NCBI GenBank assembly: GCA_965153355.1
Contig: OZ231126.1
Coordinates: 4,712,001 to 4,776,000, forward strand
DNA length: 64,000 bases
Source: Flaccisagitta enflata
Lineage: Eukaryota
Direction: 5' to 3'
Each line of letters starts with the position of its first letter. Within the stretch, counting starts at the first letter, position 1. The translations under genes were made by a program, and so were the position numbers. The notes under the pieces were generated by a model, which was not told where the DNA came from, did not search any database, and saw only the letters and a program-made list of their open reading frames with translations. This document shows positions 10,618-32,057 of the stretch, in pieces.

Positions 10618-10833
10618 TCAGAGCAAGCCTTAGGGCTAGGTGAGAGCTGGGTTAAACACAGCTCAACCCGAATCTACTCGAATTAAAGCTTCGCCCAAAC
10701 GGGAAAACCTGATAAAAACAAAAGATCAGTATCGTCTTCGAAATTTCTTCTGGTATGCCTTATAAGCAGGTGCGCTCTAGTGGTGCTCCACTACCCCCCA
10801 ACCAACCTTCCTTTTCAATTACCCTGGGCTTGG

Positions 10834-11526: not shown

Positions 11527-12402
11527 TCACTCTTGATGTTGTTGTCCAGCTTTTTCCTCTTCCATCTCCTTCCTTATTTTCCGCCTTTGCTCCTTGTGAA
11601 ATTCTTTATGCTGATAATTCCAGTCCGCTTTTTGGCAATCTTCGCTGCAGTAAAAGTGTTTCTGGACTTTGTTGGGAAATCTTTTCGCATCCGATTTGCA
11701 GGCTGCGCATACGTCGAATTCGTAGATGAGCTTTTCCACTCGTTGACACTCTTCAAAGCTGCAGCGGCGATAGCGTGACAGCAATCGGCGGTCATAAACG
11801 GAAGCGGCTTCTGCCTTTGCTGAATCAACAGCATCAGCCGACAAATCGATCGCTTGAAGGCCCTGATTGAGGCTACAAGGGCCGTATGGAGGGATGTGGT
11901 CTTTTGGGCCTAATCCGAGGTCTTGAGCGCTGGAAGACATTGCATTCGCAATACCGATAAACGCAGCTGCCGAAGCCATCTCTTCCTCGGACTTCGTTAC
12001 AGAATCCAAAAGTGCTTTCTTTTCAGTTTCAGCTTGAAAATCACTCGCCCCAGCATCAGTTGCAGTTTCTCTCATTGCCATGGCTGCGAAGAAACGTTGG
12101 ACATCATCAGCCATAGACATGGCGCAGCGGTTCATTATCTCATGAGCAATCAAGATCTCCCTATTTCTATCCACTTGTTTGAAAAGCTCCTTTTGCTTAT
12201 CAAATTGGAAGCAGTGGGACGACACCGTAATGCCATTTTTGGCTGCGGTTTCTGAAAACCAAGCATCTCTGAGCACTGGCAAAGCCGTTTTGCAACAAGT
12301 TAGGTACAATAGCCATTCCACCTCAAACCGCTTCATGTGGCTCCGGATTCTCGCGTGAGTATCCGTTCCCTCGTCGTCTTTGCAACATTCCATCATTTTC
12401 AC
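11527..12402 (-). CDS. Terminal exon of the MYND zinc-finger protein gene (total ~618 aa)
   Basis: Acceptor TTCAG| after a (CT)n tract, phase 0; CSFEEC..CAAC..YCSEDCQKADW..HKEFH MYND signature, then a short coiled coil and stop. Confidence 0.88.
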   Translation of the reverse strand: MKMMECCKDDEGTDTHARIRSHMKRFEVEWLLYLTCCKTALPVLRDAWFSETAAKNGITVSSHCFQFDKQKELFKQVDRNREILIAHEIMNRCAMSMADDVQRFFAAMAMRETATDAGASDFQAETEKKALLDSVTKSEEEMASAAAFIGIANAMSSSAQDLGLGPKDHIPPYGPCSLNQGLQAIDLSADAVDSAKAEAASVYDRRLLSRYRRCSFEECQRVEKLIYEFDVCAACKSDAKRFPNKVQKHFYCSEDCQKADWNYQHKEFHKEQRRKIRKEMEEEKAGQQHQE

Positions 12403-12429
12403 CTGAATTTCGGGGGAATTTCAGGGAAA

Positions 12430-12493
<64 letters not shown>

Positions 12494-12716
12494 AAAATTT
12501 AAGGAAAGCAATACTTTTGGCGGTATAAAAACCTAAAATATGATTAGTACAACACAATTTCACAATATTTGAACCAAAAATCTTCAATGTCTTCAATGTC
12601 TTCAGGGCAAGGGAATCGTAGAGTTGGTAGTGCGTTGCGACGCGTCGCGGGGGCAGACAAATAAAGTAGGGGAGGGGGGAATCAAAAGCAACTCAATTCC
12701 ATACACCCTCGTTCAC

Positions 12717-12931
12717 CTTGGCAATGGTGAGCTTTGCCTTCATTTGGGGATTTTTCAGCGATCCAATTGCGGCTTCGGCGTCAATCTTCTGCTGCGGTGA
12801 CAGTTCCCGTTTGGCGGCGTCAATTCTGCGAGCGAGGATTTTGTAGCGGCCATTCCACTCATTTCTCCAGAGATTAACGAGGTCCTCGGGAGGGATGAGT
12901 TCAAAGACTTCCAAGTTGGAGACTCTTCTAC
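12717..12931 (-). CDS. Exon 2 of the MYND zinc-finger protein gene
   Basis: Acceptor CTCAG|GT, open frame GRRVSNLEVF...KLTIAK, donor AAG|GTGAA in phase 0. Confidence 0.8.
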
Positions 12932-13574
12932 CTGAGTATGAACAAATTATGAAAAGGTGTTTTGGTTGCTGGTAGATAGAGTTTGAACGCATTGTTATTA
13001 TCGATCAATCAATTATACGTTTGTTCATCCATTTGTCATTACATTCATCCATTCATTAATTCTTTTATTCATTCATTTATTCATTTCTTCATATCTATTC
13101 ATTCAACTGTGCATTTGCCAAGAGATGTCCGATAGATGCGTCCTCTCTTGATACAGGATGATATAAGTAATAAGAGATCAATAAATCAAGAGAAAAGCCT
13201 CAATTCCTGCCAAGGAATTCTCGCGTTACGGATCTTCCAACCTTCCTACGTACACAGCTTCTTAAAGAGATGCGAGGACGCATCTAAAAAGGCCGGATAC
13301 ACGGCTACCTCAGTATCATGAAGGTGGTCTGGGGCTGTAGAGGTGGGGGTAATGCACCGGATCAAGTTGCAGGTGAAGGATATGTGCTAATATGATGAGA
13401 ATAGATGGTATACCAAGTTTCAGGGCCTTTGGAACAGTTTCAGCATAGCCCTCCACCCCCCCCCCCCCTGCCCCCAGAGCTTCAAAACCCAGAAAAAACG
13501 ATTTGTTTTTGCTATTTTAAGCATGTTTTGCTTTCAAAATGTGTTAAGAAATGATAAGAAATACTAAAACACAT

Positions 13575-13987
13575 AGTAATGGTATATATATAGCAGAATA
13601 AAGTTCCATTTTAAATTCCATTCTCATGAATCAGAATATCTCATCATGCATATAGATTCAATATTCATTTAATCTGATCTTGGAATTTGATAAACAAACT
13701 TGCCATATATAAGGAAGGGAATTTGAACAATCAGCAGGATCGTCTTAAAAAATCTATGCTTTTCTTAATATAACATCGTGGATGAATTGAAATGGTCTGA
13801 TATAGTCCGTTGTAAGTGTGTACGTGGCATGATGCCATAGTTAGTTTGTAGGCAGATTTACTATGTCTAGGAGTTACAAGGTAAGTAGGCTTTTTAAGGA
13901 CCGTCTTTATAACAAGACCCTACTGTACAGACTCCTTCGTAGAAGTCTAACATCCTACTAACTGACAGACCGGCATTTTGCATTACT
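13575..13987 (+). repeat. 5' LTR of the outer element (TATATAA 13706-13712, splice donor AAG|GTAAGT ~13878-13886)
   Basis: Matches 18660-18671 + 32063-32463 with about 7 substitutions by eye. Confidence 0.92.
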
Positions 13988-14006
13988 TGGTATGGCAGCC
14001 GTGGGG
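13988..14006 (+). other. Primer-binding site of the outer element, tRNA-Leu-like
   Basis: TGGTATGGCAGCCGTGGGG immediately after the LTR; resembles the complement of a tRNA-Leu 3' end (TGGTGGCAGCGGTGGG) with a 2-nt insertion and a mismatch. Confidence 0.6.
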
Positions 14007-15574
14007 TAAATGTTTGTTCGAACTTGTCTCTGTTGTGCGTCTGTGTAATCCCGGGATCAGACCATTTCCAATTCTAGGTCAACCACGATGTGTTGTCTTT
14101 CCTAGTTTTTCTTTTCTTACCTTTTCTGCCCTCTAAAAATAATCATTTATTTTGCTTCAAGGATTTTGTGACTTTTGGTTTTAATGTTTTTCTTGTCTTT
14201 CGTGTTTTTCCTGTTAATCGACTGAGCTTGGTAAGTGTTTATGATTGGACATTGGAGTGCTTTGTGATGGTGTGGGTGATGTCTTGTTTGTCCGATTGGC
14301 ATGGTGTGTCGAACGAATGATGGATTGATTGTGTCGCTTTTACTATGTGTCTCGAGAATTTGATGCACATTTTTCATTTTTACAGTTTTGTGTTTTTTTC
14401 TAAAAAATTGATGGAATAGATTTTAATTTAGATTGCTTGGCTAATTCATAGGTTTTTTTGTTATACGTTTATTTTTTGGCAAATTGTTGATAATAATTTC
14501 TTGTCACATTAATTAGGTTAACTTTCATCTTTCCTCTGACTATGAGATGTCAAATTTTTTTGGTGGGAAAGCAGCTATATTTTCAAAGACTAAATGGATA
14601 CGGTTTGTGATTTAGCCAAAGATGGGTATTGATTTTCTTCAAAGTCTTTAGTCAGTTTTTGTTTTTAGACAGTGTTCTAGCCTTGATTCATATGTATAGT
14701 TACATTTTTTCAGTATTTTCATACATCTTAAAATGAGATATAGGTGACGTTTCTTTTTTGTGCATGATGGTACAGGCGTGTGTGTCTGTGGATTGGGAAT
14801 ATCTTGTTTGGTGTGTATTCATGGCTTTGACTTTTGGCTTACTGGACTTTTGCCCTCGCCTTTGTTACCATCTAAGAATATGTTCAATAATATGTTTCAA
14901 AATGTTTTCCTTGAGCCCTTTGCTTTCCGTTTTTACGCTGATTGCATTTCTATGGACCGTGTTCGCTGGTTCACCATGACCCCACAAAATTTTTGTGGTT
15001 TTCAAAGTTGTTTTTTTTTCTCAGACATATTTTTGTGGGGACATTATATAGATTTTTATCGTATTATTTTTTATATTTTTTACATTTGAATTTTTCTCTT
15101 TCTTGCTGAATTTTGTTTTTCATCTTTATTTTGTGTTTCATAGGGAAAGAAACTTTGGTTTTTCTTTTCTTGTCCCTGATTTGATCTTGAGATATTTTCT
15201 TGTTTTTTGTTTCAGTTATTTGCTTATATTTTCATATATTTGTCTTTTTGTTTTAGTTTTTTGTTAAGGGATTAAATTTGGTTCTTTATTTTTGTTCTTT
15301 TGTTGTTTTTTTTTTCATATGCATACATATAACAGGCCTAACTTGATTTTTGTTTGACCTTCATCTTTATATTCTGGTAAATATTTCTATGCCAATTCTT
15401 TTTATAAAACTACAAACTTTTATATATTGTGAATTATTATGAACTATTATGAATTATAGCTTGTATTATGATTGGCGCTTGCAGTTTACATATATAGCGA
15501 TGGCCACTGGTTCTTTCTTGCGCTTAGAATTACGTTAAATTCTGTGCCTAGAGGGAAGGGCAGGGTGACAGTAA

Positions 15575-15696
<122 letters not shown>

Positions 15697-15833
15697 AAGA
15701 GAGACAGACAGACAAACAGACAGACAGAGTATCAGACCGACAAACAGACAGACTTTTGAATGGGAGGAATAGGAATGAGTTTGACAGACTAACGGGATAT
15801 GAGCCTACGCGAGAATGTGAACGGGAAGAGAAT

Positions 15834-15928
<95 letters not shown>

Positions 15929-16021
15929 TTAGAGACAGATGGACCCCTACACAGACAGACGCGAGACTGCGAACGATCAAACAACAGACTGAAGGACGAA
16001 GAACAAGTGAACTTAGTGAAA

Positions 16022-16113
<92 letters not shown>

Positions 16114-18671
16114 TAAAGAGAGAGAGATAAAGAGAGAGAGATAGAGAGAGAGAGAGAGGCGAAGGTCAGACCCATGGTGGGATGGACAGAATGATAGACT
16201 GACAGACAGACAGATGGACAAGTGGATACAGAAATACAGATAGGCAAAAGAAATTTCAATTTGGACTGTTACGTCAGCATACATCAGAAAATATTTCAAA
16301 ATACAAAGTCTAATCTGAAGAGATTACGTTCTCCTTTTTGTAACATAAAGTCCATTTCCACGATTTCCCTGGCAAAAAGTTGACAAACAAGTGATGGAAC
16401 GAAAGGCAAAGTCGAACTTTTAGAGAATTGGTTACAGTTGGCCACGTTTTTGTCCTTGTAGTTCTTTTTGATTGTTCTAAAATAGTTTCATTAGCTTTTT
16501 GTAGGGCACTTATAGCTCCTTTTCTTCTCTTTGATATTTCACCTGTCTTTTACTATTCTTGTTATTTCCTGCTTGGATATCACGCTGAGCACTGACCATG
16601 CAAGGCTGACATTCTGGCTTTAAGGCGATCTTCCACTGTCAGCATTTGATTAAACTGAAGGCTCGGCAGTCGGGCTGTTGGAGCCCTCTTGAACCAAGAG
16701 GGTAGTCCTGAACGGTTTAGCTAAATATTGCCAGTGCAAACCCCCTGCGAGTGCGGGGATCGAGATAGCCATGCCCAGCAGTTGGGTATGCCCGGGGGAG
16801 GGCCATCTGCATCAGATAAACAGTCGTTGGTCACAGGGTTTATATGATGTACCAGTTTGATGGCCTGAAGGCTGATTGACCAAGAAGTACAGTTTGTAGA
16901 AACAAGGTTGAGTGACCTTATTTTAGTTTGTAGAGTTATAGTTTGAGTGAGGTGTGGAAAGTTTCCGCCCATAAAAAAGGAGAAATTCTGTATGCGGGAT
17001 ACAATTAGTCGATGTTGGGGGCCAACAGATCACACTACCAAATTGCAGTTGTGACAACAGGTCGGATTGGTTACTGACAGTGACGAGGACCTGGAGAGAA
17101 CACTAACAAATACACTTTTTATTTTAAAAGAGTTTTTTTTGAGGGACATGAGCATGAAATTTAAGGACAAAATGAGAGAATGCTCCAGGCTGAGATTCAG
17201 TTTTAGAAGTTTTAAGGAATTTTTTTTTCAAAAATCTATATGAGGTAATTGACATTTATACAATGCTTAGAAAGATTAGTAGTTTTTTTTAAATAGCCTC
17301 TTATATTTGAGTTACCATGTCAAATTAGGCAAGCCATTTATTATTTAGTAGCAACAAAAAGTTTTCAACTAGATATATTTGCAAAATATTACTAAATAAT
17401 GTGTTTATGTTTTTTGCATATTTAAAAAAAAAAAAAAAAAAGTGTTGGCAGTTGTTACCAAAGGTTGATTGGCGTTTATTCTTTTTATTTTTCTGCGCAT
17501 TTTTGACAACCACTCACTTATGGACAAATACTAAGATAAGCGCACACAGGCACAGATGTACGGACTATTGCTAGGGCTTGTCATTAACATGGGATCGAGA
17601 TTTTTAACATTGATCTTTGCTAATTTGTTTCATTCTCATTCATTTATTTGACATTGGCGTTTCTACTAAATTAATTATCGTAAATGATTGGACAGTCTTA
17701 AGACGTTTTTAATTGTTCGTCTTTGACAAGTGGAGACCAACTGCAAAACAAAGAAAGAAAATCCGTTCGCCTTTTCACCCCTTATCATCTCACTAATCAC
17801 TCGCGATAACATAGCATCATCCCAGCTTTTGACTAAAATTGTGCACAAACATGAACCGACTGAGAATTTTCTAAAAATTTGAGCATTTGATGATAATGAG
17901 TGTCATATGGGTGTTAATAACAGTTGTCGCCTTGAATTTGGTGCTCAGAATGGGGGCGTAGGTCCACTTTCTGATCTCCATTTTTGAAAATGGGGCGAGA
18001 AGAAAGGGAATGTGAAGTAAAGCAGAAAAAAAATGATATTTTTCAAAATGGAGATCAAAGATCTAAAGTCCATACTAGGTGACCTGAGATGCTGTGTGTC
18101 TAAAGATGGGACGGAGGTTCCAAATTTGGTCTCATAGACAACTCGGAGTTCATTGGAAGTGATTATGATATGAATGATAATGGATGAAGTCCAAAAGAAA
18201 AAAAAAGAACAATCAGAGCTGAAAATGTACATGTTGAAATAACCTTAAAGCCGTGACAACCAGTTTGGAATGAAGGTTCAAAATTTGGTAACATGGTACA
18301 ACTTAAGGCATTGTGTTGCTTGATTTAGGGTGGAGATCCTTTATTTGGCACACAATTAGACAGTAGAAGTAAATGAATTATAAGACGGTAGAAAGAAAGT
18401 ATGATGATGGTTTCTGTCGAAGTCTAAGCTTATCAATGCTCATTAAGAATTTGATCAACAAACATCACACAAGAAGCACCGCATATGATAGCACAAACAG
18501 CACTTTTTGGCACAAAACGCACTACACACAGCAAGCATTCACTAGGGTGAATGGAATGGAGAAATGCCAACATAACCAGCAAGAAGATGCGACATTTTTG
18601 TTTACTGTTAATTGTAAAAAGATCAGATTAAGAAATGTAACTTTATAGAAGGGAGGTAGAGTAATGGTATA

Positions 18672-19578
18672 TATATTCTCCCACGTGAATACTAGTTTCG
18701 ACTCTGGGTTAGCTTTGTTTGTAGAAATCTCTGACTGACTGACGATGGTAGACGCAAAGGAATTTGGGCGTAGATTGGAAAATGGCGTGACGATGGTCTC
18801 TTTGATGTGGTAAAAATTTCAACAATCTGAGATGGGGGAGAAAATAAAAGGGAAAATTGGGCATGAAAATATGGTCAACCAATGCATGAAAGTAACATGA
18901 GATCAGGATAGACATGGACAGAAACAGCCAATAACAACATGTACATCTTATGCAGAGGCCATGAAGCCAGATCCGTACACTGCCCCCGCCCTGCCCAGCC
19001 CATTAAATTCACCCATATCACCCAATAATCAGTTGACCGGACAGACGATAAAAACAGAACATAAAACGCCAAAAACAGACAATAAAACAATAAAAACCAT
19101 ACGACAAAAACAATGATAAAATACTAAAACGCTAAAATAATAAAACTTACTTTAGGCCCAATTTCCTTGGTTTCCAGCCAGCGTCGTGATCGTCAAATAA
19201 GTCAGGCGTCCGTACATAAGTCTCTGAAATAAAAGGATGAGAGACTTATGAAAGATGAGAAATTCCAAGGGCGCAAGACATGAAAATCACACAAAATATC
19301 AATCATTCCATTAAGAAGTGATGCCATAATAACGATATTTTTTCACGATACAAATGCGAAGCATAAAAAGCACGACGACGAAAAATGTAAAAGAAGAAAA
19401 TACATGATAACATGTATCTCTCAGCGAATAAAAGAACATCAAAATCTATGCGCAACCATATGGTTCATGGTTAAATTAAATGGAAACAAAAGGCATCGAA
19501 TTGGAAAAGAGAGAGAAAAAAGCATTCACGCGAAGAACATCATCATTCCCATACTTATAAATAGCACACATTTCCACA
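18672..19578 (-). repeat. BEL element 3' LTR (907 bp; lacks the terminal 8 nt seen at the 5' LTR)
   Basis: Direct repeat of 31150-32057; begins TGTGG on the minus strand immediately after the PPT; abuts TSD GTATA. Confidence 0.93.
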
Positions 19579-19593
19579 CTCTGCCCCATTTTT
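19579..19593 (-). other. Polypurine tract of the BEL element
   Basis: Minus strand AAAAATGGGGCAGAG directly precedes TGTGG of the 3' LTR. Confidence 0.8.
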
Positions 19594-20661
19594 GGAATTT
19601 CACAAATTTCAAAAATCCGACATCTAGTTTCTAGTCGCGGGAAACCATACTAAAAAACCCATCTGTCACGCTAAAAAAAATTTACAATGATCATCTACAG
19701 CCCTCGCCTCCCTCCCCCGCCTCCGCCTCTTACATCCCCACCCCTCTTGCAGAAGGAGACCGACGAGCGACATGGCGGCGAAAGATTCCCCCCCCCCGTC
19801 CGGCAAGGGGGAGGCGTCAACCAAGCGATGTGATCAATCCAGCACCCGAAGAGCGGAGACGAGACGGAGACGAGGAAGAAAAGGCACCCGTTCTGAGGAA
19901 AAATTAAAAGGGAAGGGGGGGGGGGAAAGGGGAACGGGCCTAGGAGCACCTCTAGACTGGGATTTGCCATCGAGGTGGAAAAGTATAAGTAGAGGGCATT
20001 GACTAAAATGTTATGATACGAATATCTTCGTAATTACACGCTAAAAAGACAATGTCAAATACAAACAAGAAAAAACATACATGTTCCAAAGAACAACAAA
20101 ACAAGCATAAAAATATAAATTACTACTATCCTATATTAAAACCGAATCTGAAAAATAAAAATTAGGTAAGATTCATGGGAACGACCACGTCACCTGCACC
20201 ATTTCCAAAAGGAAACATGCGGACCATATCGGAAGCTCCAACAGCTCGTCAAATCGTGGGTAAGAGACGAGAATGAAAGGCGCGAAATGGACACCGCGAA
20301 GTTGGGCAGATGGCGCCGTCGTCTGAGAAGATTTTTCTCCCCTCGCGGGGAGATGAAAGAGAAGAGAAATGGGGGTAGATGGATTAGTAAAGTTCTCATC
20401 ATATGCAGATTCAAACATAATAACGAAAAATTCACACACCATCTCTTCCATGAAACTTACGCGGGCGTTTTTTGCCAGGCCCCGGGGCGGATAAGAATCC
20501 CACGCCCCGGGTAGCGCCCCCGAACGTGCCGGCCTGTCCATCGAGGGATGAGCGTCGCGATGAAATGGTGACGACTCAGCGAAGTGGTGGCGCTCTCCAA
20601 GTCGCGTTACTTGACGGAAATTAAAAGGACGGTAACATTGGACGTGGCACCGGATGCAGCT

Positions 20662-22740
20662 TTATTGCGGCGGCTGCTGATGGTTTTGCTGCTGCTGCTG
20701 CTGGCGGCCTGGATTCCAAGGACGCCTCTTTTTCTTTGGCGCTGTCTTGGGAGCGTCTTTATCGCTTTGCGCAGTCGACGAGACGGGAGGCCGACTTTTA
20801 TTTTCTGCAGATGCAGCTGGCGATGAAGATGTCGTCACAGTCACAGGAGCTAGGATGGCGCGAGGATCTTGTTGGATGCAGACGACGTGTTTAACAGATG
20901 CTGCCGCCGACGCCGTCTGCTGAAATCCCGCCGCCTCCTTTGCCTTTGCATCCGCAACCTTTGTCGCTGTCTCCAACTGCTTCTCCAATTCCGTCACTCG
21001 CGTATCGCTCTTGACCTTCGCATCGAGCGCAATCATCGCTTGTCGTCTCGAATCGGCGATGTTTTTCTCAATTCGAGCCTTTTCCGCCATGTCTCATAGC
21101 TGACGAGCACATTCAACACGCTGAGCGTTGCTGAATGATTGGTAGTAAGTCGGCGGTAGGGACGACGCAAGTCTTTGCAACTGTCGTTTAGAGGCATTCG
21201 ACGGTGTTGTTGCACATAGGCGTAGCAGATGCTCTTCGATGCGATGTCCAGTATCGATGTCAAGAACCGTCGACGAAGGAGTTGGCGAATCCTTCCCCTG
21301 TTGCTGAGGCGCTGTCGGTCCCTTAGCTTGCTGTTTAGGCGCTGTAGAACCAGATGCACCCGCTGGAGGCTGAATGTCGCCTTTTGAATTCCCTTGCGCT
21401 GCTGCTGCTCCCGGCCGCTGTTTAAGCTCCTTTGCCTTCTTTGACGCGGACGCCGCTGAAGACGCAGTTGCTCCCCCGCTACCCGGAGCGATTGCCGCTG
21501 CGCTGGGAACCTCCTGCTGTTGAGGAGGAAGTTGTTGCTTCTTTTTGATGTTATTGTTTTTGCCTTTGCCTTTGCTTTTGTTATTGGCCGTGGCATGAAG
21601 CTGTTGTTGCTGCAGCTGCTGCTGTTGTTGTTGCCGTTGCTGCTTTTGATGTTGTTGTTGCTGCTTCGGCTGCTGTTGTTGCTGCTGCTGCTGCTGAGGA
21701 TGCGCTGGATCGATTGCCGGCGCCCTCTTCTCCTGTCGACGCCTTTTGGGATTGGGAGTTTCATCACGAGGATCCGGCCGCTGCTGATTTGGGGGATGAA
21801 CCAATGCCGGACGCGTTTGACGATCTGATGCTGCATTGGTGGAAGATATCGCCGGTGAGTTTGCGGCTGCAGCATGAGATGTTGGAGTCAAATTCTTCCT
21901 CGACGCTTGGACCACACGCCGAGCCTCTTTGAAATTCTCCCTTTTCTTTTTCTGCCTTCCTTGTCTGCGATCCAAGGTTTCAAAACCTAACTCACATTGT
22001 GTAGCCGATGATCGCAGTTCCTTCTCTGAATTGCAGCAAATGTTTAGTTTTGAGAAGGTCTTAAAGATCAACGACTCTGACTCATCTGCTGGGTCATTGC
22101 GATGGTAAAACCAGCGTGCTTGCTTCCGCTGGATTCTGACCTCAGGAGAGTCTTTGTCCACTTCCGGGTCAATGGGCGCCTCCTCCTTTTCCTCTGCCAC
22201 CACCACCACATCCATCCCCTCCTCCTCTTCTGCCGCCTCCTCCCCATCAACCTGAGAGTCATGATCTTTGCTTCCGCTGCGATGGCCTGCAGCTTTTAAT
22301 CGTTCCTGGAGAAGGGTTCTCGCCTTCGGAGAAGCCGGTCCCCCAAAACCAGGGGTGAAAATGCGACGTGGAAGCGTTTTTGGAAGGACGGACGATCCCG
22401 TCGACGAGTTGGCGATGGAGACGTCGTCGACGGGCCGCTGCAACTTCACTCTGCGTTGACTTCCTCCCGAGATGGCAATGGTGAGGGGAGGGAGAGCGGA
22501 AGTAGAAGCGTGGTCGGCCGGCTGTTGGAGATTTGCCGACTCATCGTCCATGGTGAGGTTGAGATCGCCGCTGAAGGCCGCTGTCGTAGCCGCCTCCACC
22601 TCATCCTCAAGCAACGTGACGGAATCCGTCTCGATGTCTTCATTCCGCACTGGCGACGCCATCAAACGGTCGAGATCGAAAGATCCGGCCGCCGTCGACG
22701 CGTCCATTTCGGCCTGAAGACGCTGCGCGCGCGATGGCAT
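20662..22740 (-). CDS. Extra ORF3 of the BEL element, ~692 codons with one internal in-frame TGA (21096-21094); Gln-rich, basic NLS-like motifs, coiled coil; not Env-like
   Basis: ORFs 21094..22740 and 20662..21090 share a frame (CTA TGA GAC ATG); lies between pol and the PPT; no signal peptide or hydrophobic TM run; RQKKKR, PKRRR and PKKKRR motifs. Confidence 0.75.
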
Positions 22741-23101
22741 CTTGACTCCGACGAATCGACTTCAAGATGCAGACTGACGTGATGATGGAGTTCGACGTCA
22801 GCGGAAGCTTTGAATCACGTTAGAACGAATTGACTGTGTTTGGACGAAAGCATAGAAAATAGCATGATATCTACATATATACAAAGCATTGAACCAATGT
22901 TTAATTTACATGAAAATGAACATCACAAAGTGCCAATATGAGGAAAGAGTTGAATGCATGGATGAATAGAACCAAATATGAAGACGTACATCTCTTTATG
23001 TCAGTTATGAGCAAACAGAGCAACAATCATTCACATCTATAGTTACTAATGGACAGGCCCATGCGCCTAAATCTCTCTCTCTCAAAACTTAGCGTTTTTT
23101 T

Positions 23102-26100
23102 TTATGAGTCCATCTCCAGCCGCACGATCTTCGTGCGATCCCTCGTAACAATTCTTCCGTCAGCGCGTCGCACATGCGCCCGCCGGACATGGGGCGATGT
23201 GCCTTCAACGTCGACGACCCTCCCTAGGCTCCAATCGTGTCTGGGCACAGCCTCGTCGACGATGACTACGAGATCATCAACCGCCAGGTTCCTCTCGGAT
23301 TTTGTCCATTTACTCCGCGCATGAAGAAGATTCAAGTATTCGGAACGCCATTTCTTCCAAAAGGCATCCACTTGCGATTGGGCGCGCTTCCATTGGACAC
23401 GTGTGGACTCCGCGTCGAAGTTGACGCCGTGCTGCAACAGATCCACAGGAGCGCTTCCGGAAGTGGATGGCGATAGGATATGATTTGGCGTCAGCGCCGA
23501 CGGATCACTTGGATCATCGCTCAGCGCTGTGAGGGGGCGACGGTTGAGAATACCTTCCACCGCGATGACCGCAGTGTGGAAGGTGTCGACGTGCAGCGTG
23601 GCGCCAGATGATATGGATGCAAGATGGCGCTTAAACATCGCCACAACTCGCTCCCAAACACCACCGTAGTGCGGTGTTTGGGCGGTGATAAAATCCCATT
23701 GGAGGCCTCGTCGTTGCAATTCAAGAGTTGACGAACGATTCCACTCTTCCATCTCCTTCTTGAGGATGTTGTTGGCGCCTATCAGGTTGGTTCCTCGATC
23801 AGATGTAAATCGTCTAATGCCTGGGCGCCTGGCTGCAAAGCGAATGATGGCGTTGATCATGGAATCAGCGGACATGTTGTAGAGCAGTTCCACATGAACG
23901 GCGCGGGAGACAAAGCAAGTGAAGACTGCCACCCACACCTTATGATCTGCTCTGCCATTCATTTTCACATTGAAGTGACCCATTACATCCAATCCCGTCT
24001 CCGCGAAGACAGGTGCAGGGTTTACTCGATTGGATGGTAATGGCGCCATCTGCTGATCCGCGTGCCTTTTAAAGTTCCTCTGGCATCTAAAGCACGAATG
24101 AACGACGCTTTTAACGGCCTGAAGACCTCTAGTGATCCACGCGAATTGACGCAGTTGACATAGAGTATGCTTTGCGCCAGCATGGAAGTCATTATGATGA
24201 ACATGGCGAATTAATGACTTCACATTATCGTCTTTTGGTGGAAGAATGAAGGGAAATTTGATGTCGTCTGAGATGTCGGCATTCACCAATCGGCTGCCGA
24301 CTCGAAGGATGTCATCATCGTCGACGAAAGGGTTGAGCATCCGCATCTGCTTGTTTTTGACGATGAACTCATGACGACTGTTTGGTGCATTCACCTTTCC
24401 CGCCTCCAATTGAGCTATCACCTCTCCATAATTCTGCCGCTGCACAGCCTTGACGAGCTGCTTCTGCGCTTCCTCCAGATGGACTTGCGTCACTTCCGGT
24501 TTAGGGAGGAGATCCTTTGTCGCTCTCGTTTTTGCTTTTGGGAATAATCGCCATCGCCGGACTGCAATGAAGAGCATGGCGATGACGCGGAGTTTATGCG
24601 TCCATTTTCCCCGAGATGCGGCTGCACGCAGCACCGCGTCGAATTCTTCACTCTTATCCTCGACAGCAGCGTATAGCGCCGCCACGTGGACAGAGACAGG
24701 GTACGTCGCGATGTTTGTTTGCGGCCATTGATCCTCAGGGAGACGCAAGAAGTCCGGCCCGTTGTGGAATTGACGCCACTTCTCCGCCTCGTGAGATTCG
24801 ATTCCACGAGAGCAGTGGTCGGCGGGGTTGTTGGCGGAATCAACCCACCGCCACTGCTCTGGAGTTGATCCTGCGTGGATTTTTGAGAGACGATTGGCGA
24901 AGAAGACGGGTCTTGGGCGTGATGGGTTGTATATCATCTTCAAAGCGGCCTCTGAATCTGACCATAGTCTAATGTTTTTCTCCTGCAGATTCAAAGTCTT
25001 GTTGACGAACCGCTTGAGCGGAATCGCCTTTTCCGCGGAGACGATTTCCACACGAGGAACGCTGTTGTGATGAGATGCTCTCTTTGGATTGAGAGGAACC
25101 ACGTGTGATTTTGACCCCAATATTGTCACATAGACCGAGCCGTCGGAGTTGACTTGGCGACGATATGCAACAGCACCAAATCCACCTTTCGGCGCTGCGT
25201 CGCAGAAGATCTCGATGGTGACGGAAATGACGTCGACGTTGTCAACATCACCATTCCACCACCTTTTGACCCGGTATTGCGAAAGAAGAGGCCAAGACGA
25301 AGTGTATCTGAAGAAAGACTCTTCCAACGCCTCGTCGAGAGAAGAATCCCATCCTGTTTGTTGTGGACGACAGAGTTGGAGATGACGTCGTCCTATGTAT
25401 TGGCTTGGACTCCAAAAACCAAGTGGATCGTAAAGTTTGGCTTGCATGGAGACCAATTGACGTGGTGTTTTCGCCCTCATTGTTTTAAATTCGTCATCGC
25501 AGATGAAGACAAAGGCGTCTTCAGATGGAAGCCACGAGACTCCCAACACTTTCGTCGGCTTGTCGTCGTGGTCTTGTTTATCCGCGATGGGAATAGCGAC
25601 GTTTGGATTTCCTTCCATAAGCTGATGATGATTACTTTTCCACTTCACCAAGTGGAATCCTCCATCACCCATTGCCGACTTCACTCCCACCTTCAAGTCC
25701 AGCGCCTCGTCAACTGTATCACCACCTCCACTTCCGTCGTCGACGTAAAAACCATGACGGATAAAGTCGTAAACGTTGGGAGGGTAATATGGACGAATGA
25801 CGTTGGCGTGGTGTCTGACGGTGAAGCCAGTGACAAACGAGCTGGAGAGGCTTCCAAAGACGTGGGAAAGAAATAGATTCAATATGGCGAGGCGGAGGCT
25901 TCTATCCTTGAACCAAAAGAATCTGAAGAGATCCGCATCATCAGGGTGGACTCTTATTTGGTGGAAGAACGCCTTTATGTCACACATAAAGGCGATCTTC
26001 CACTGTCGAAAGCGCATCAGGATGTCCATTAAGCTGTTCATCAAGTTTGGTCCACCTACCAACAGATCGTTTAAACATACTCCGTCGGTGGCGGCACGCG

Positions 26101-27118
26101 CATCATGACATACTCTGGTTTTGCCTCTCAACTCCACTATGTGGAGAGGGAGGTACCAGCGCGGCTTCAGGATATCCTCGTCGTCATCAATGCTGTCAAT
26201 CTCAACCGCCACGCCCGTTTCATAGAATTTCTCAACTTCTTTGAAGACACGCTCTTTGAAGGCCGGATCGCGATTGAAGCGGAAGCGTTGGTTGACGAGC
26301 CGCTTCATGGCTGTAGGCCGAGACTTCACTTTGCGTAATATCTCCATGATCTTTTCAATTTCGAATTTCCATGTCACAGGCGCAAAATACTTTTTTGTCA
26401 CATCACAGAAATAGATCTTTTTCTCCAATGTTTCACAGGCGCGTTTGTTTTCAATCGAATCGCCCATTTCTTCAGAGGAAACGACAGATCCATAGTCATG
26501 GTAGAAAATTCGGTCGAAACTTTGATGTAAGTCGCTGTTATCCACCGAAATAGCGTTAATTGATGCAACGTCTAAACCTTTTTTTCCAGTTTTTCCACTA
26601 ATCGTCCAACTGAAACTGCATCTGAAGCATGTTAAAGACCCTGGAGGACCTCGACGAAGCTCTTGAGCGATGGCTGCGTCTGAATGAGCGGCGCCAACGA
26701 TCATCTTGACGCCTCCTGTCACCTCCGGGAATCTTATGCCTCTGACGTGGGGTTGGTCGGAAAGATCTCGTAGAAATGGTGGAATATCTTTTTCACTCGT
26801 AAGTAAATTCCCCACCAGCGCATCGTTGACATCAATGATGTATTCGGAGTTGGTGGAGCGAAGAGTGAATGACGCTAAAAGACGGTTTTCAGTCACACAA
26901 TTGTCCACTGTTACTACTTTCATTTGGACCATATTTGTAGAAATGCGCAGATGTTTGATGACATCGTGGCTGATGACGTCGCGATCAGCGCCACTATCTA
27001 TCATCGCAAAGATTGTCATTTCTTCACCAGACGCACAATTTACAATCACTACAGGGACGATGGGACGGACGACGTCGTCGAAGGATGAAACGGATCGCGA
27101 CGCAGCCGTCGCCGCCAG
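23102..27118 (-). CDS. pol: BEL/Pao Pol (aspartic protease, RT, RNase H, integrase), uninterrupted and in frame with gag after one TGA
   Basis: Protease FAMIDSGAD; RT YLPLH..RVCHDA..LNDLLVGGPNL..DIKAFFHQI..FYVDD; RNase H IFCDAA..VPRVEI..WSDS..NPADHCSRG; integrase HHCC (H..HAG..CFRC), GLDVMG, SDRGTN, GGVWERVV; C-terminal FWKKWRSEYL. The frame is open from 27118. Confidence 0.97.
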   Translation of the reverse strand: MAATAASRSVSSFDDVVRPIVPVVIVNCASGEEMTIFAMIDSGADRDVISHDVIKHLRISTNMVQMKVVTVDNCVTENRLLASFTLRSTNSEYIIDVNDALVGNLLTSEKDIPPFLRDLSDQPHVRGIRFPEVTGGVKMIVGAAHSDAAIAQELRRGPPGSLTCFRCSFSWTISGKTGKKGLDVASINAISVDNSDLHQSFDRIFYHDYGSVVSSEEMGDSIENKRACETLEKKIYFCDVTKKYFAPVTWKFEIEKIMEILRKVKSRPTAMKRLVNQRFRFNRDPAFKERVFKEVEKFYETGVAVEIDSIDDDEDILKPRWYLPLHIVELRGKTRVCHDARAATDGVCLNDLLVGGPNLMNSLMDILMRFRQWKIAFMCDIKAFFHQIRVHPDDADLFRFFWFKDRSLRLAILNLFLSHVFGSLSSSFVTGFTVRHHANVIRPYYPPNVYDFIRHGFYVDDGSGGGDTVDEALDLKVGVKSAMGDGGFHLVKWKSNHHQLMEGNPNVAIPIADKQDHDDKPTKVLGVSWLPSEDAFVFICDDEFKTMRAKTPRQLVSMQAKLYDPLGFWSPSQYIGRRHLQLCRPQQTGWDSSLDEALEESFFRYTSSWPLLSQYRVKRWWNGDVDNVDVISVTIEIFCDAAPKGGFGAVAYRRQVNSDGSVYVTILGSKSHVVPLNPKRASHHNSVPRVEIVSAEKAIPLKRFVNKTLNLQEKNIRLWSDSEAALKMIYNPSRPRPVFFANRLSKIHAGSTPEQWRWVDSANNPADHCSRGIESHEAEKWRQFHNGPDFLRLPEDQWPQTNIATYPVSVHVAALYAAVEDKSEEFDAVLRAAASRGKWTHKLRVIAMLFIAVRRWRLFPKAKTRATKDLLPKPEVTQVHLEEAQKQLVKAVQRQNYGEVIAQLEAGKVNAPNSRHEFIVKNKQMRMLNPFVDDDDILRVGSRLVNADISDDIKFPFILPPKDDNVKSLIRHVHHNDFHAGAKHTLCQLRQFAWITRGLQAVKSVVHSCFRCQRNFKRHADQQMAPLPSNRVNPAPVFAETGLDVMGHFNVKMNGRADHKVWVAVFTCFVSRAVHVELLYNMSADSMINAIIRFAARRPGIRRFTSDRGTNLIGANNILKKEMEEWNRSSTLELQRRGLQWDFITAQTPHYGGVWERVVAMFKRHLASISSGATLHVDTFHTAVIAVEGILNRRPLTALSDDPSDPSALTPNHILSPSTSGSAPVDLLQHGVNFDAESTRVQWKRAQSQVDAFWKKWRSEYLNLLHARSKWTKSERNLAVDDLVVIVDEAVPRHDWSLGRVVDVEGTSPHVRRAHVRRADGRIVTRDRTKIVRLEMDS

Positions 27119-29831
27119 TCATGCCTCGACGGGAGGAGTGATGACATTGTCGTTTGAAGTGGTCGTTGTTGAAGGTGTTGAAGCAGGAGTGGTTGAAGTG
27201 GAGGAAGGTTTGTCGAAATTGGCAAATGGAATGCCATTGTTCATCTTTTCTCCTCCTTTTTTCACCTCCTTACCATCCCCTTTCTTCACCCATGTGCGTC
27301 CATGGAGAATGGTGGCGTGCTGTTTCTTGCAGGTTTGGCAGGTTGGTCTGTTGGTGCAACCCTTTGCCGAGTGACCACTGGTGAAACAGTGGAAGCAGAG
27401 TCGGCATGATGCCAACTTTTGCACGCGTGCGTCGACGTCGAGTGAAAGGAGCTGATTGCACTCTTCCGTCGGATGCATGCCGCTGCAGACGTTGCACTTG
27501 TCGGTCGACTGCAGCTTTTGCTTCCCGTTGGTCAAAACGTCGTTGTAGGTTGGTGGATTTTCACCCATTGCCACCGCTGCCACTGCTGCGGGCTTGCTTT
27601 CCACCCCTTTATTGCGTTGGATGACAGCCCATGTTTCAATCATGTTAACCAAATTGTCAAATGAAAATGGGATGCCTTGCAATTCAAATTCGTGTTGTTT
27701 TTCCCAAAACTTGTCCGCCAAATGTGGCACTCGTTTGTTAATGATTTCCTGCAATATTTCCTTCCTGTAGCACTGTGGCAATTCTCCACACGTCTGCGCA
27801 ATCTTCTTCGTCTTCAGCAATCGTGATGCGAGATGAAAATGTCTCTTATGGTCAGCGGACGAGATTTTCGATTCAGCGGCAATCTCATGGAATAGCGCTG
27901 GGATGTTGGCTCGTGAAGCCATGAAGATGACGTCCATCTTCTTGAAGGCAGCCTTCACCTCTTCCTCTGCGACCGCTTCCGTGGTGCCAATCGCCGCAGT
28001 TTCAACTATCTCTTTCGCTGGACCCGAAAACCATTTTGGTAATTCTTGAAGAATGTCCATCTCGGTCAAACCCTCATGTTTTGCAGCATCTTTAAATTTA
28101 CGCTTCCACATCATATAATCCGTCGACGAGAGCTCTTGAAGCGGCTTCTCAGGCCTAGCTTTCTCCATCGCCTTCAAGCCGACCTCTCTTGCCCGCATTC
28201 GATTGTCGTCAGAAGCTCTCTTCAAAAACATCTCCAATGCTTCACTCTGATGGAATTGTTGCACCACTTCCGGTTGACGGGCAGCTGGATGATCGTGATG
28301 CTCTTGGTATGTGGGAGGAGGAATGATGGAGACGTATTGACCTCCCACCTTCACTGGAGAATGTCTTTTTGTGGTTTTTGTGTACCACACCTCGTCATCT
28401 TGCTGTTGTTGCTGTTGCTGATGTTGCTGCTGTTGATGTTGATGACTTCTTGGTGCATCGAAGTCTTGACGGATATATTGATGTTTCTGCAATTCTGCTA
28501 TTTGAGCTTTCGCTGCCTGCAGATCAAATTGATTCTGTTGAAGAAGTTGTTGTTGTGCCGCATTCGCTTGTTTTAGGTTTGCAGCATCCTTCTTAAGACG
28601 ATCCATTTGACGGTCTACTTCGGGAAGACGATGAGCTGGAGCTGCAGCTGGAGTCTGGGACTTTCTTTTCTCCTCCTCTTGCATTCGTCGCGCAAACTCC
28701 TCGTCCGCTGCTTCCTGCTCCCTCTTCCTTCTCCTCACGCCTTCTGCATCGTCTATCAACAGTTGATCGAGCTTCAACATATCCGCCGCCGTCAATGAAG
28801 GGTTTGGCGCCGTCGTTGTGAATTCTCTTTCGAAGATCACTTCCGGCGCCGATGGAGGAATGACGGCAGACGGCGGTTGTTGATGATGAGGAACGGATTG
28901 AGGCTGAGGTGGAGATTGAGTCTTTCCTCTTTCTCTCTTTCCTTCCCCAGTCTTCACACTCGATATACGCTGCTTCACATGAGTTTGCGTTGGTTGTTGA
29001 TGTTGAGGTTTGGACGCTATCTGAGGATGATGACGCGTGACAGGGATATGCTGTGGCTGCTTCTTCGGCGCCAGGGGCGGATGCACCGGCGCCACATTCT
29101 GCAACTTCACTGCATCACCTGCCTGTATTTCACCCTTAAATTGCTCGGAAGAAACCCATTTGAAGTGAGTTGTTCTTGCCGCCTCTTCCTCTTTCAACTG
29201 GTTGAGTCGCAGACACATCTGTTGATATTGCTGCTCTTCTTCCGGTGACTTGTTGCTTTGCTGACATCTAATAGGCACTGCGCTAATCATTTCTGACGTA
29301 TCCGTTGCAGTGACCATCGTTGTTGCTGAAGCATCTTTATCACCTCCTTCCAACATGCGGATTCTTTGCTCCGCTAATTGCTGTTGATGAAGTTGTTCAG
29401 CTTCCAATGAAACTTTGCTACCGACAGAGAGAGGATTAAAAGCAGGAGGATTGACGACTGGAGCTACACTGAAGGCAACATTCTGTTGCTGCAACTGGTG
29501 TTGGGGAACTTGCTGCTGCCGCTGAAGACTTGCTTGCTGTTGCAGCTGCCGCTGCTTCTCCTCCTCCTGTTGCTGCAACTGGGCTTCCTGCTGTTTTCTT
29601 TGTTGCTCGGCGGCTTGTTGTTGCCGCCTTTGCTCTTGTTCTTGGACCTTTTTCTGCAACATTTCTTGTTCTTTTTGCACTTGTTGCATTTCTACTCTGA
29701 CTTGTTGCAACTGTTGTTGCTGCTGTTCTTGTTGCTGCTGTTGTTGCTGCACTTTTGCTTGCTGCTGTTGCTGCTGTCGTGCTTGGTCCTGTCGTTGCTG
29801 TTGTTGCAACTGTTGAAGGCATTGCTGCTCT

Positions 29832-29872
<41 letters not shown>

Positions 29873-31080
29873 TTGCTGCCGAATCCTTTCTTGTTCGAGC
29901 TGTTGCTGACGCAGTTGCTCTGCTGCAGTTGCTGTTGGCGCAACTGTTCTTGCTGTTGTTGTTGCTCTCGCAGCTGTTGTTGTTTTTGCTGCTCTGCAGC
30001 CGCCTGTTGCTGTCTCAATTGTTCTTGCTGAAGCCTTTGTTGCTCCTCAGCATCTTTCCTTTGCTGTTCTTGCTGCAATCGTCGCTGCTCTGCCTCTTGC
30101 TGTTGCTGGAGTTGTTGCTGCCGCTGCCGCTGCTGCTGCTCCTGCTGTTCGCGTTGCTGCTGTTGCTGCTGCTGCTGCTCCAACCTCCGCTGTTGCTCTC
30201 GCAGATCAGCCTGAAGAGCTTCATCTCTTTCTTTTTGCTGTTGCAGCATCCTTCCTGCCCTCTCTCTCTCTCTGCTTCTATCGGCGTCGCGACGTCTTGA
30301 TCTTTCCCTCGGCGTCAATCCGTCGGCAGGTTTTGACTTTGCCAACGTTGCCGCTTCGTCGAGATCGTCCAAATCCGCATCTCGATGAGATTGCCCGCCT
30401 GGATTGACGGGTTCGATTTCAGAAATGTATCTCTCGACGTATTCGTTCGCGTTTCTTGGAGGGAGAAGATGACCGTCTGGAGATTGGGCGCCATGGCGCG
30501 TCGGCGGTAATCCCATGTATTCTGACGATCCCGGAAGTGGCGAGGACGTTCTCATCCGCGATGGAGGAGCGCCCGCGCCGTCGCGAGCCGATTCAGTCGG
30601 TATACTATTCCACGAAAACTGATGTACGTGCCTCTTCCGTTGGCCGAAGTCGCCTTCACGCGCGTTGATGACGTCAGCATGCGCCGGAAATCCCTCGCTG
30701 TACGTTTCTCGGTCAAAGAACCTCATGGCGTCCCATTCACGTCTAATTCGACGCAAACTCGACGCCGCGTAACGCAAGGGGTCGCCGGGCATCTCGTCGA
30801 TCGCCATTTGACGAGCGAAAGCGATATAATCGTAGACGTAGTCGCGTAGACCGTTCCTGGCGCTGTCCGAGTCCAGCGACGCGTCTTCGTAATCGTTTGA
30901 GCCTTCCGTCGTCGCCAAAGCGGCGTCGAAAAGTTGACGACACCGATCCATTTCCTGTGACAATTCGCCCTTCATAACGCGGAGTTTTTCAGTTTTGGGA
31001 CATTGGTTTAACCCAAAAAAGGACACCCGAGAAGACGTAGACGCAGTCGAACGGTTATCGTCGTCGTTGAAAGCCGCCAT
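27119..31080 (-). CDS. gag: BEL/Pao Gag, ~1320 aa, long poly-Gln/coiled-coil N-terminal half; one 1-nt frameshift near 29920
   Basis: ORFs 29692..31080 and 27119..29809 join if one G is restored in CAG-(G)AG-CAA; start context AAAATG; C-terminal triple zinc knuckle CNVCSGMHPTEEC / CFHCFTSGHSAKGC / CQTCKKQHATILH typical of BEL Gag. Confidence 0.88.
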
Positions 31081-31141
31081 TTTGACCCGATATGCCCCGG
31101 GATGTCAGAAGAAAAGTTCGAGAGGAGTCGAGTTTTAAAAT

Positions 31142-32057
31142 TGTTGAAATATATTCTCCCACGTGAATACTAGTTTCGATTCTGGGTTAGCTTTGTTTGT
31201 AGAAATCTCTGACTGACTGACGATGGTAGACGCAAAGGAATTTGGGCGTAGATTGGAAAATGGCGTGACGATGGTCTCTTTGATGTGGTAAAAATTTCAA
31301 CAATCTGAGATGGGGGAGAAAATAAAAGGGAAAATTGGGCATGAAAATATGGTCAACCAATGCATGAAAGTAACATGAGATCAGGATAGACATGGACAGA
31401 AACAGCCAATAACAACATGTACATCTTATGCAGAGGCCATGAAGCCAGATCCGTACACTGCCCCCCCCCAGCCCAGCCCATTAAATTCACCCATATCACC
31501 CAATAATCAGTTGACCGGACAGACGATAAAAACAGAACATAAAACGCCAAAAACAGACAATAAAACAATAAAAACCATACGACAAAAACAATGATAAAAT
31601 ACTAAAACGCTAAAATAATAAAACTTACTTTAGGCCCAATTTCCTTGGTTTCCAGCCAGCGTCGTGATCGTCAAATAAGTCAGGCGTCCGTACATAAGTC
31701 TCTGAAATAAAAGGATGAGAGACTTATGAAAGATGAGAAATTCCAAGGGCGCAAGACATGAAAATCACACAAAATATCAATCATTCCATTAAGAAGCGAT
31801 GCCATAATAACGATATTTTTTCGAGATAAAAATGCGAAGCATAAAAAGCACGACGACGAAAAATGTAAAAGAAGAAAATACATGATAACATGTATCTCTC
31901 AGCGAATAAAAGAACATCAAAATCTATGCGCAACCATATGGTTCATGGTTAAATTAAATGGAAACAAAAGGCATCGAATTGGAAAAAGAGAGAGAAAAAA
32001 GCATTCACGCCAAGAACATCATCATTCCCATACTTATAAATAGCACACATTTCCACA
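31142..32057 (-). repeat. BEL element 5' LTR (916 bp, TG...CA, imperfect terminal inverted repeat TGTGGAAAT/ATTTCAACA)
   Basis: Matches 18672-19578 with about 8 substitutions and 1 indel counted by eye (~99%). The inner boundary is 31142 if canonical termini are used, or ~31150 if only sequence shared with the other LTR is counted. Confidence 0.93.

Follow-up and report, generated by a model that had tools for sequence, protein, structure and literature searches.

Introduction

BEL/Pao retrotransposons, flanked by long terminal repeats (LTRs), are described as possessing one to three genes, the third of them envelope-like, within a total length of 4.2–10 kb (PMC8742986, PMC3118150, PMC13524379). 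Third open reading frames (ORF3s) are reported for LTR retrotransposons of bdelloid rotifers, where GDSL lipase, DEDDy exonuclease, “CC” and “TM” types are distinguished and transcription is observed (PMC5408684), and the extra ORFs of the plant LTR retrotransposons Grande (GENE23), RIRE2 and Retand are conserved in most copies and have no database similarity; some of their products are nuclear, and such frames were proposed to have regulatory functions comparable to those of accessory proteins in retroviruses (PMC7264820). Accessory ORFs named sORF1 and sORF2 are also known in the MDG1 group of Drosophila Ty3/gypsy elements, that is in LTR retrotransposons lacking Env (PMC11952523). Here, we analyze a BEL/Pao element of Flaccisagitta enflata (assembly GCA_965153355.1, contig OZ231126.1, positions 4,712,001 to 4,776,000; this whole stretch of 64,000 nucleotides (nt) is called the window), whose third gene, designated below as ORF3, is probably a functional accessory gene maintained by a clade of such elements, the copy found in the window being a recent insertion with one private nonsense mutation. 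The ORF3 protein is predicted to be soluble, having neither signal peptide nor membrane anchor. Among retroviruses, the Tas/Bel1 protein of foamy viruses, Rev of human immunodeficiency virus (HIV) and Tax/Rex of human T-lymphotropic virus (HTLV) are encoded 3′ of pol and combine Arg/Lys-rich nuclear targeting and self-association with expression from subgenomic mRNA. Full-text searches for a third ORF of non-envelope type in BEL/Pao elements found none.

Results

A third gene kept intact in sister copies

The element lies on the minus strand between positions 18671 and 32057 (13,387 bp) and is assigned to BEL/Pao because its pol frame bears Peptidase_A17, Integrase_H2C2, rve and DUF5641. ORF3 (20665..22740, minus strand; ATG 22740-22738, TAA 20664-20662) is a sense frame of 692 codons situated between pol and the 3′ LTR, and it is found where it was described in a previous interpretation of the window made from its letters alone (hereafter, the sequence-only reading), which had placed this frame of ~692 codons in the env position. 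The same interpretation set ORF3 after pol and before the polypurine tract; the order stands, but the frame does not adjoin the tract, being separated from it by a non-coding spacer of ~1.1 kb. The chance probability of its 555-codon open stretch is ~6e-13 at local base composition.

Word-based search collected 92 members in the cluster (P0002) that is 97% identical to the window ORF3, and 12 of the 15 members listed are intact, distinct sequences of 692 amino acids (aa), each with 21–28 differences from the window copy. Codon 549, which reads TGA in the window (21094..21096, minus strand), is a sense codon in 12 of 12 intact 692-aa relatives, in P0003, P0021 and P0027, and in all contigs assembled from four out of four sequencing runs. 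The internal TGA is a private nonsense mutation of the window copy, and its earlier explanation as a CGA to TGA decay had to be abandoned, the sister copies examined having a sense codon at this place that never encodes arginine. A HMMER search against 1.84 billion representatives returned 25 matches at E<=0.001, of which 24 are plausible; all those examined are family members, no named protein turned up, and 14 out of 14 aligned sequences form one family. P0047 (E=8.8e-4), a bacterial protein of 2,559 aa with Ig repeats, was dismissed as spurious. More distant members, P0023 (703 aa), P0062 (673 aa) and P0063 (513 aa), show 40–45% identity to the window protein, and P0023 itself represents a cluster of 81 members, with the length of 703 aa in 9 of the 15 listed. 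Family-wide, the protein starts with M-SR-QRLEAE, ends with KDAPK..RPWN and has several conserved blocks in constant order, and it is this set of start, end and blocks that is kept by the 703-aa relative (44% identity) and by three more lineages. Sister copies, which were compared individually and in which the sequence-only reading proposed to look for absence or neutral evolution of ORF3, turned out to be intact and to bear signals of selection described below. With ORF3, the element has a genuine third gene, and the BEL/Pao clade possessing it is abundant in marine plankton samples and in one organism. No DNA of relatives was found when metagenome contigs were scanned with alignment A4 and P0023 and viral contigs with P0002.

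Judging from composition and conservation, the protein may be laid out as an acidic N-terminal half, a conserved block of ~110 residues, two clusters resembling nuclear localization signals (NLSs), a variable low-complexity linker, a possibly helical conserved block of ~130 residues with a heptad-like end, and a basic C-terminal motif with RPWN. Its net charge is -29 over residues 1–80 and 161–200, and residues 201–680 are net positive in every 40-residue window except 481–520, where the charge is zero. The first conserved block (residues 170–282; 21895..22233, minus strand, as for all features of ORF3) includes an acidic patch, DPEVD, QRKQARWYY, LFKEFxKLxxCCN, RSSATQ and the first basic cluster; the next one, RPxxVHPPxQQ..PRDxTPNPKRRR (residues 309–340; 21721..21816), contains the second cluster; the C-terminal block (residues 488–615; 20896..21279) unites FDPxxGHHIDExLLRE, LPxDFY and RQRVExARQVWD with a subsequent Pro-free heptad-like stretch; and the terminal motif KDAPK..KKxRxRPWN (20710..20760) carries the third cluster. 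All three basic clusters pointed out by the sequence-only reading are in place (RQKKKR at 262–267, PKRRR at 331–335 and PKKKRR at 668–673), both segments that looked ordered coincide with family-conserved blocks, and the coiled coil is reproduced inasmuch as a crude heptad scan flags residues 577–616. Poly-Gln runs are likewise present (349–357, 370–375 and 680–685), the main CAG/CAA tract (residues ~349–380; 21600..21697) being recorded by Tandem Repeats Finder with period 3 and 32 copies. As a functional trait, the poly-Gln did not hold up: it occurs only in P0002 and P0003/P0021, i.e., in the subfamily of the window copy and its 70% relative, and a long tract is absent from P0023, P0052, P0062 and P0063. 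By this distribution, poly-Gln is an expansion in a variable linker and not a core feature, and the idea of a condensate-forming protein is weakened because the tract is subfamily-specific.

Selection was assessed from variants and indels. Among 13 sequences of 692 aa, variants affect 2 of 181 family-conserved positions and 38 of 511 others (Fisher p=0.0007), and nearly the same disproportion is seen among nine sequences of 703 aa (3 of 196 conserved positions vs 39 of 507 others, p=0.001). Indels between copies were collected from the four sequencing runs, and the 12 listed out of 24 are distributed as eight in the spacer between ORF3 and the 3′ LTR (mostly 1 nt), three in the pol-ORF3 spacer and one in the LTR, with none in ORF3, gag or pol. 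For the 11 indels that fall into either spacer or ORF3, the absence of any from ORF3, which makes up 2,076 of 3,523 nt, has by arithmetic a probability of ~6e-5. Judged by these patterns, ORF3 is under purifying selection and not neutral.

Envelope, gag and host genes as possible sources of ORF3

The absence of signal peptide and membrane segment, claimed by the sequence-only reading, was confirmed, and no glycoprotein family matches the protein. With the threshold for a membrane helix at ~1.6 for the 19-residue Kyte-Doolittle mean, the maximum in the window protein is 0.81, and the first 25 residues average -0.66; in nine out of nine family members, the maximum stays at or below 1.52 (at or below 1.28 in the full-length ones) and the N-termini are hydrophilic. 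Pfam searches of ten family members at E<=5 gave no family common to any two of them and no envelope family, such entries as Lin-8, Seadorna_VP2, PrcB_C, MctB and others being hit by one member of ten each, under cut-offs. No match below E=1.7 was obtained with sequences of the Protein Data Bank (PDB), and its SGT2 and TAF10 entries at E ~2 were rejected as weak.

Descent of ORF3 from an env gene deprived of signal peptide and membrane anchor would agree with its position, which is that of env, with the coiled-coil-like stretch, and with the envelope-like nature of the extra ORFs described for BEL/Pao (PMC8742986, PMC13524379, PMC3118150). We nonetheless consider this origin extremely improbable, given that none of the nine family members has a membrane-like segment or hydrophobic N-terminus, that the N-terminal motif M-SR-QRLEAE is charged and conserved, that the Pfam survey of ten members just mentioned is void of envelope families and Cys content is only 0.9%, and that the membrane-less form is kept in at least four lineages. 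Duplication of gag was also tried as a source and rejected, the hhalign probability being 0.1–0.2% against both gag frames.

Outside the family, no homologue was found in the 1.84 billion representatives, word-based searches, Pfam and PDB sequences, and no named regulator family of Pfam matches ORF3. A longer fused form, looked for with residues 170–340, was not found either, which is weak evidence. Clear homology to an envelope or a host exon, named by the sequence-only reading as the outcome that would speak against its proposal, did not emerge from Pfam, PDB or protein searches. As far as sequence comparison reaches, ORF3 matches no described family and is a new protein family.

These data also bear on the supposition that ORF3 is a captured host gene or a passenger without a role for the element. 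Capture of foreign ORFs by LTR retrotransposons is documented (PMC5408684, PMC7264820), and a fast rate of change would be in line with such a history. The rate may be estimated by pairing ORF3s with pol ORFs through their contigs. ORF3 P0005 and pol P0188 (98.9% identical to the window pol) are both represented by two contigs, the longest being 11,668 bp, and the contigs of ORF3-like P0051 and P0058 (9,828 and 8,491 bp) are equal in size to those of pol P0202 and P0204. If equal-sized contigs are the same contigs, this matched pair gives 78.7% identity for pol and 44.4–44.7% for ORF3, and on the same proviso, ORF3 changes ~2.6 times as much as pol, because of which it is regarded as the faster gene. 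This difference (44% vs 79% in rounded terms) speaks for capture. It is counterbalanced by the lack of an outside homologue in sequence searches, by preservation of length, start and end across lineages, by variants shunning conserved positions in two subfamilies and no listed indels falling into ORF3, and by codon usage that is pol-like. In GC content and synonymous codon usage, ORF3 resembles pol as closely as gag does (correlation of relative synonymous codon usage, r 0.47 vs 0.44), which argues against recent capture. Altogether, the captured or passenger gene appears as quite an improbable explanation.

Possible routes to an ORF3 message

In the genomic RNA, ORF3 is preceded by 9.3 kb of sequence, the last part of which is a spacer (22741..23101, minus strand; 361 nt, GC 38%) that contains 11 ATGs within the first 266 nt and is ATG-free over the last 93 nt; because of this distance and the 11 upstream ATGs, ORF3 needs a shorter, subgenomic mRNA. 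Such mRNA would have its 5′ end or exon junction within ~95 nt of the ORF3 ATG and could be formed via splicing or from an internal start. The sequence-only reading proposed splicing from a donor in the LTR at 31629 and was right in that the ORF3 ATG is the first one after the AG at 22835-22834, precisely where the ATG-rich part of the spacer gives way to the ATG-free one. Its pyrimidine-rich acceptor is confirmed partially: the motif TTTTCTATGCTTTCGTCCAAACACAG (22834..22859, minus strand) with AG at 22835-22834 is there, but only 13 of 20 nucleotides are pyrimidines, which is under the 0.7 cut-off. The donor-like AAA|GTAAGT (31623..31631, minus strand; last exon base 31629) is the better of two candidates scoring at least 7 of 10.5 by a simple score in the first 3.5 kb.

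Splicing between these sites is a possible though doubtful source of ORF3 mRNA. Both motifs exist, and within the first 3.5 kb no donor-like site is stronger than GTAAGT at 31628; the ATG pattern fits; just one ATG precedes the donor within 92 nt; and, according to the study of bdelloids, LTR retrotransposons typically use spliced messages to express their ORF3s (PMC5408684). Conversely, contigs of three out of three RNA-library runs cross unspliced, being colinear both over 22834 (records 4, 18 and 26) and over 31629 (records 8, 24 and 32), and none of the 15 joints listed (of 46) comes from an RNA run or connects these sites. The acceptor tract is weak, having AAACA beside the AG, and other AGs (22811 and 22775) precede the ORF3 ATG without an intervening ATG. 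Finally, the ATG-free leader of gag starts at 31305 and TCAGTC repeats are located at 31220 and 31216, so that transcription starting there would leave 31629 in the U3 part of the LTR, off the 5′ end of the RNA.

An internal start site within the pol-ORF3 spacer, producing unspliced mRNA with a leader of ~35–95 nt, is an equally tentative possibility. The octamer CGTCAGTC (22772..22779, minus strand), containing TCAGTC, is found 32 nt before the ORF3 ATG and also in both LTRs (31215-31222 and 18737-18744), where it belongs to the ATG-free gag leader; the window has five matches to it vs 0.95 expected, and 0 of 100 shuffles reach five. TATATA is present at 22881, the spacer is AT-rich like the LTR (GC 38%), and its ATG-free stretch would equally fit a short leader. 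The four residues VGVK encoded just before the ATG recur in the upstream extension of P0052, a 44% relative, which suggests constraint on the leader. These arguments are motif matches alone, two independent occurrences of an 8-mer are weak, and contigs do not reveal where an RNA begins; moreover, TATATA is ~46 nt away from the AG and ~105 nt from TCAGTC, whereas the usual spacing is ~30 nt. TCAGTC resembles the arthropod initiator, which may not be that of the host. A parallel is offered by foamy viruses, whose accessory genes are driven by an internal promoter. On balance, splicing and internal start appear about equally likely.

P0052, which belongs to the cluster of the 44% relative, has an upstream in-frame extension (residues 1–44), and its ungapped comparison with the translated ORF3 leader of the window (22741-22833) reveals identity of the last four residues, VGVK, and of 7 among the last 31. 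This hints that the leader may be conserved at the nucleotide level, unlike the indel-tolerant 3′ spacer. Folding of the 96-nt leader disclosed no structure (z = -1.11). Within the LTR, 11 ATGs are accumulated on the minus strand in the stretch that begins with the donor-like GTAAGT and is closed by TTTTATTTTCTCCCCCATCTCAG, a strong acceptor-like motif (31628-31306), and the subsequent 225 nt from 31305 to the gag ATG have none, which would imply either a leader intron inside the LTR or a transcription start near 31305-31216. An inverted repeat around this putative intron (31629-31642/31332-31345; 14 nt, 86% match) was set aside as being by estimate about at chance level, and so was the gap of run X14 at 30395-31226 with a contig end at 31292 as a mark of the RNA end, since a single study is its source and RNA ends are not visible in contigs.

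Putative role of the ORF3 protein

A nuclear role of the ORF3 protein is plausible in view of its basic clusters, two of which, out of three, have K[KR]x[KR] at homologous places in four out of four full-length lineages. The protein would act inside the expressing cell and not in cell entry. There are about even odds, on the features predicted for it, that it works in the nucleus and associates with itself, serving as an adaptor for, or a regulator of, RNA or DNA of its own element; it might, for instance, take part in transcription, help to export unspliced RNA or help to import the pre-integration complex. A more ambitious proposal regards these elements as “complex” retrotransposons, in which ORF3, translated from its own subgenomic RNA, would be a fast-evolving nuclear regulator of transcription, unspliced-RNA export or host silencing and an independent counterpart of Tas, Rev and Tax outside Retroviridae; we consider it rather unlikely in this complete form. 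Somewhat less likely still is a cytoplasmic cofactor of structure or assembly, i.e., a nucleic-acid chaperone or a scaffold of virus-like particles. For such a cofactor speak the basic, low-complexity C-terminal two thirds, the heptad-like stretch suitable for self-association, and copy numbers matching those of pol (clusters of 118 for pol and 92 for ORF3). Clusters of basic residues associate with nucleic acid no less readily than with importins. The opposite inference is drawn from gag, which already has zinc knuckles and its own long Gln/Glu/Arg-rich region, from the ORF3 profile, which is unlike either gag frame (hhalign 0.1–0.2%), and from the strongly acidic N-terminal half (net -29), atypical of a chaperone.

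Several circumstances weigh against ORF3 as a selected, expressed gene with a nuclear protein, and they concern each part of this interpretation. ORF3 is present in most copies, as seen from cluster sizes of 92 (ORF3) vs 118 (pol) and from contigs of all four runs covering it, but protein databases, which list called ORFs, under-count broken copies. The 20 listed substitutions in ORF3 comprise 9 synonymous and 11 non-synonymous ones over 490 and 1,583 sites, respectively (ratio ~0.38), which speaks for purifying selection too but is a weaker test, as it was made on 40 of 368 rows and the decay of the window copy itself enters into it. The density of substitutions in ORF3 is not below that of the 3′ spacer, with 11 and 10 listed differences over 689 and 745 nt in one contig spanning both. 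Linkage of the 44% relative to pol is taken from equal contig sizes and not from sequence. Contigs of three out of three metatranscriptome runs (one study) cover ORF3, but RNA libraries may hold DNA, and contigs give neither strand nor level; no 31629>22833 junction was found in RNA runs among the 15 joints listed, though contigs may miss a rarer spliced form. As to the protein, the third basic cluster of P0062 fails K[KR]x[KR], and the number of NLS-like motifs is not above shuffles in two of five proteins (P0062, p=0.24; P0021, p=0.30). The heptad-like stretch 577–616 has homologous matches in P0023 and P0062 and none in P0063, and the words “helical”, “coiled coil” and “disordered” stand for composition, a crude heptad scan and conservation alone.

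Other features of the element and its surroundings

The LTRs align over 909 columns with 8 mismatches and 1 gap, which amounts to 99.0% identity. The 5′ LTR (31149..32057, minus strand; 909 bp) begins with TGTGG and is flanked by ATAC at 32058-32061, and the 3′ LTR (18671..19578, minus strand; 908 bp) is flanked by ATAC at 18667-18670, so that ATAC at both ends constitutes a 4-bp target-site duplication. The window copy is a young element and a recent insertion, with no second copy within the 64-kb window. The size of 13.4 kb exceeds the range of 4.2–10 kb given for BEL/Pao (PMC8742986, PMC3118150) owing to the great length of gag and to the presence of ORF3 and of a 3′ spacer of 1.1 kb; that range is descriptive and gives no ground for exclusion.

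The pol frame (23105..27118, minus strand; 1338 codons, TAA 23104-23102) matches Peptidase_A17 (4.5e-27, residues 551–722), followed by Integrase_H2C2 (6.9e-08), rve (8.7e-05) and DUF5641 (3.3e-21), and its relatives have the identical Pfam set with RVT_1 in addition. The window pol belongs to a radiation of pol-only ORFs numbering ~45 clusters (P0067-P0113) with 99% to ~34% identity, almost all from marine assemblies; relatives in sea urchins, acorn worm, coral, amphioxus and mosquitoes appear from 33–34% identity, and there gag is fused to pol. In the window, gag and pol share one frame, separated by an in-frame TGA (27119..27121, minus strand). Since pol ORFs of relatives, from 99% down to ~34% identity, are all ~1300–1340 aa long, the stop or frame change at the gag-pol boundary is a feature of the clade, which points to programmed read-through. 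Folding of the 95 nt that surround and follow this TGA is no better than that of shuffles (z = -0.30).

Two frames represent gag: an upstream one of 462 codons from the first ATG (29695..31080, minus strand), with a Gln/Glu/Arg-rich end and no Pfam match, and one of 975 codons (27122..30046, minus strand) with zinc knuckle(s) near its C-terminus, namely, the CCHC knuckle CFHCFTSGHSAKGC at residue 884 and two more Cys/His clusters adjacent to it. They overlap by ~350 nt of low-complexity sequence, and the Gln/Glu/Arg-rich stretch of the upstream frame resumes in the next frame in the region of about 29920-29950; RNA-library contigs have loose ends inside gag at 29920, 29921 and 29951. This gag looks like one protein of ~1,300 residues, its frame being either broken in this copy by a frame change within the low-complexity region or subject to a -1 shift. 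DUF1759 was not detected in gag by Pfam, and no primer-binding site complementary to a tRNA was recognized.

The 3′ spacer (19579..20661, minus strand; 1,083 nt, non-coding) ends with the purine run AAAAATGGGGCAGAG (19593-19579, 15 nt), which adjoins the 3′ LTR. Its GC content of 48.5% is coding-like, as compared with 37–39% in the LTR and flanks, and no conserved frame is seen; it could be a long 3′ untranslated region or a decayed former gene. Five ORFs of this spacer have no Pfam match, and the 162-codon continuation of the ORF3 frame past its TAA (20661-20176) was discarded as coding, because relatives stop at RPWN, 1-nt indels occur inside it and Pfam gives no match. Neither AATAAA nor ATTAAA is found within the LTR, and the AATAAA overlapping the ORF3 stop (20661-20666, minus strand) was rejected as a signal, this hexamer occurring three times in the sense strand of the element vs 4.6 expected, i.e., at chance level. 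Beyond the element, the flanks (1-18670 and 32058-64000) contain many simple repeats, every frame having long runs of Ser, Asp, Met, Glu/Arg and Leu/Ser. The only domain hints there are weak, 11530-12420 resembling a MYND finger (E=5.6e-4, below cut-off) and 34495-35286 resembling DUF4485 (E=0.003). Rfam and tRNA scans of the window gave no match.

Discussion

In a clade of elements that are numerous and were active recently, a soluble protein of ~700 residues is kept under selection, and this protein is a new family with clear conserved blocks. This makes it convenient for addressing the question of what a retrotransposon that has no extracellular phase needs a third gene for. There is also a practical side, as gene callers will label ORF3 as a host “hypothetical protein” in marine metagenomes as well as in the host genome.

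The nearest described frames by position are the envelope-like third ORFs of BEL/Pao itself, i.e., the F-like one of roo, the gB-like ones of Tas and Cer, and the Chuviridae-like glycoprotein of mosquito elements, which occupy the same slot, in sense orientation between pol and the 3′ LTR (PMC8742986, PMC13524379, PMC3118150). ORF3 differs from them in lacking signal peptide and anchor, in having few Cys and in showing no glycoprotein similarity, which makes it another kind of protein. A comparable distinction applies to sORF2 of the MDG1 group, which is short, transmembrane and fusogen-like (PMC11952523), while ORF3 is long and has no membrane segment. With respect to Tas/Bel1, Rev and Tax/Rex, ORF3, known here from sequence alone, is two to six times longer, mostly of low complexity, and has no Pfam similarity at E<=5. 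The plant cases belong to Ty3/gypsy, and their nuclear examples are antisense (PMC7264820), whereas a sense ORF in an animal BEL/Pao element is described here. The ORF3s of bdelloid rotifers are found in other retrovirus-like LTR lineages (Juno, Vesta, TelKA and Mag), and several of them are recognizable enzymes, the “CC” type being compared with ours by description only (PMC5408684). Like the gene studied here, they are family-specific, follow pol and are not Env, some having coiled-coil features only (PMC5408684). An animal BEL/Pao case is thereby added to the accessory genes of plant and rotifer LTR retrotransposons.

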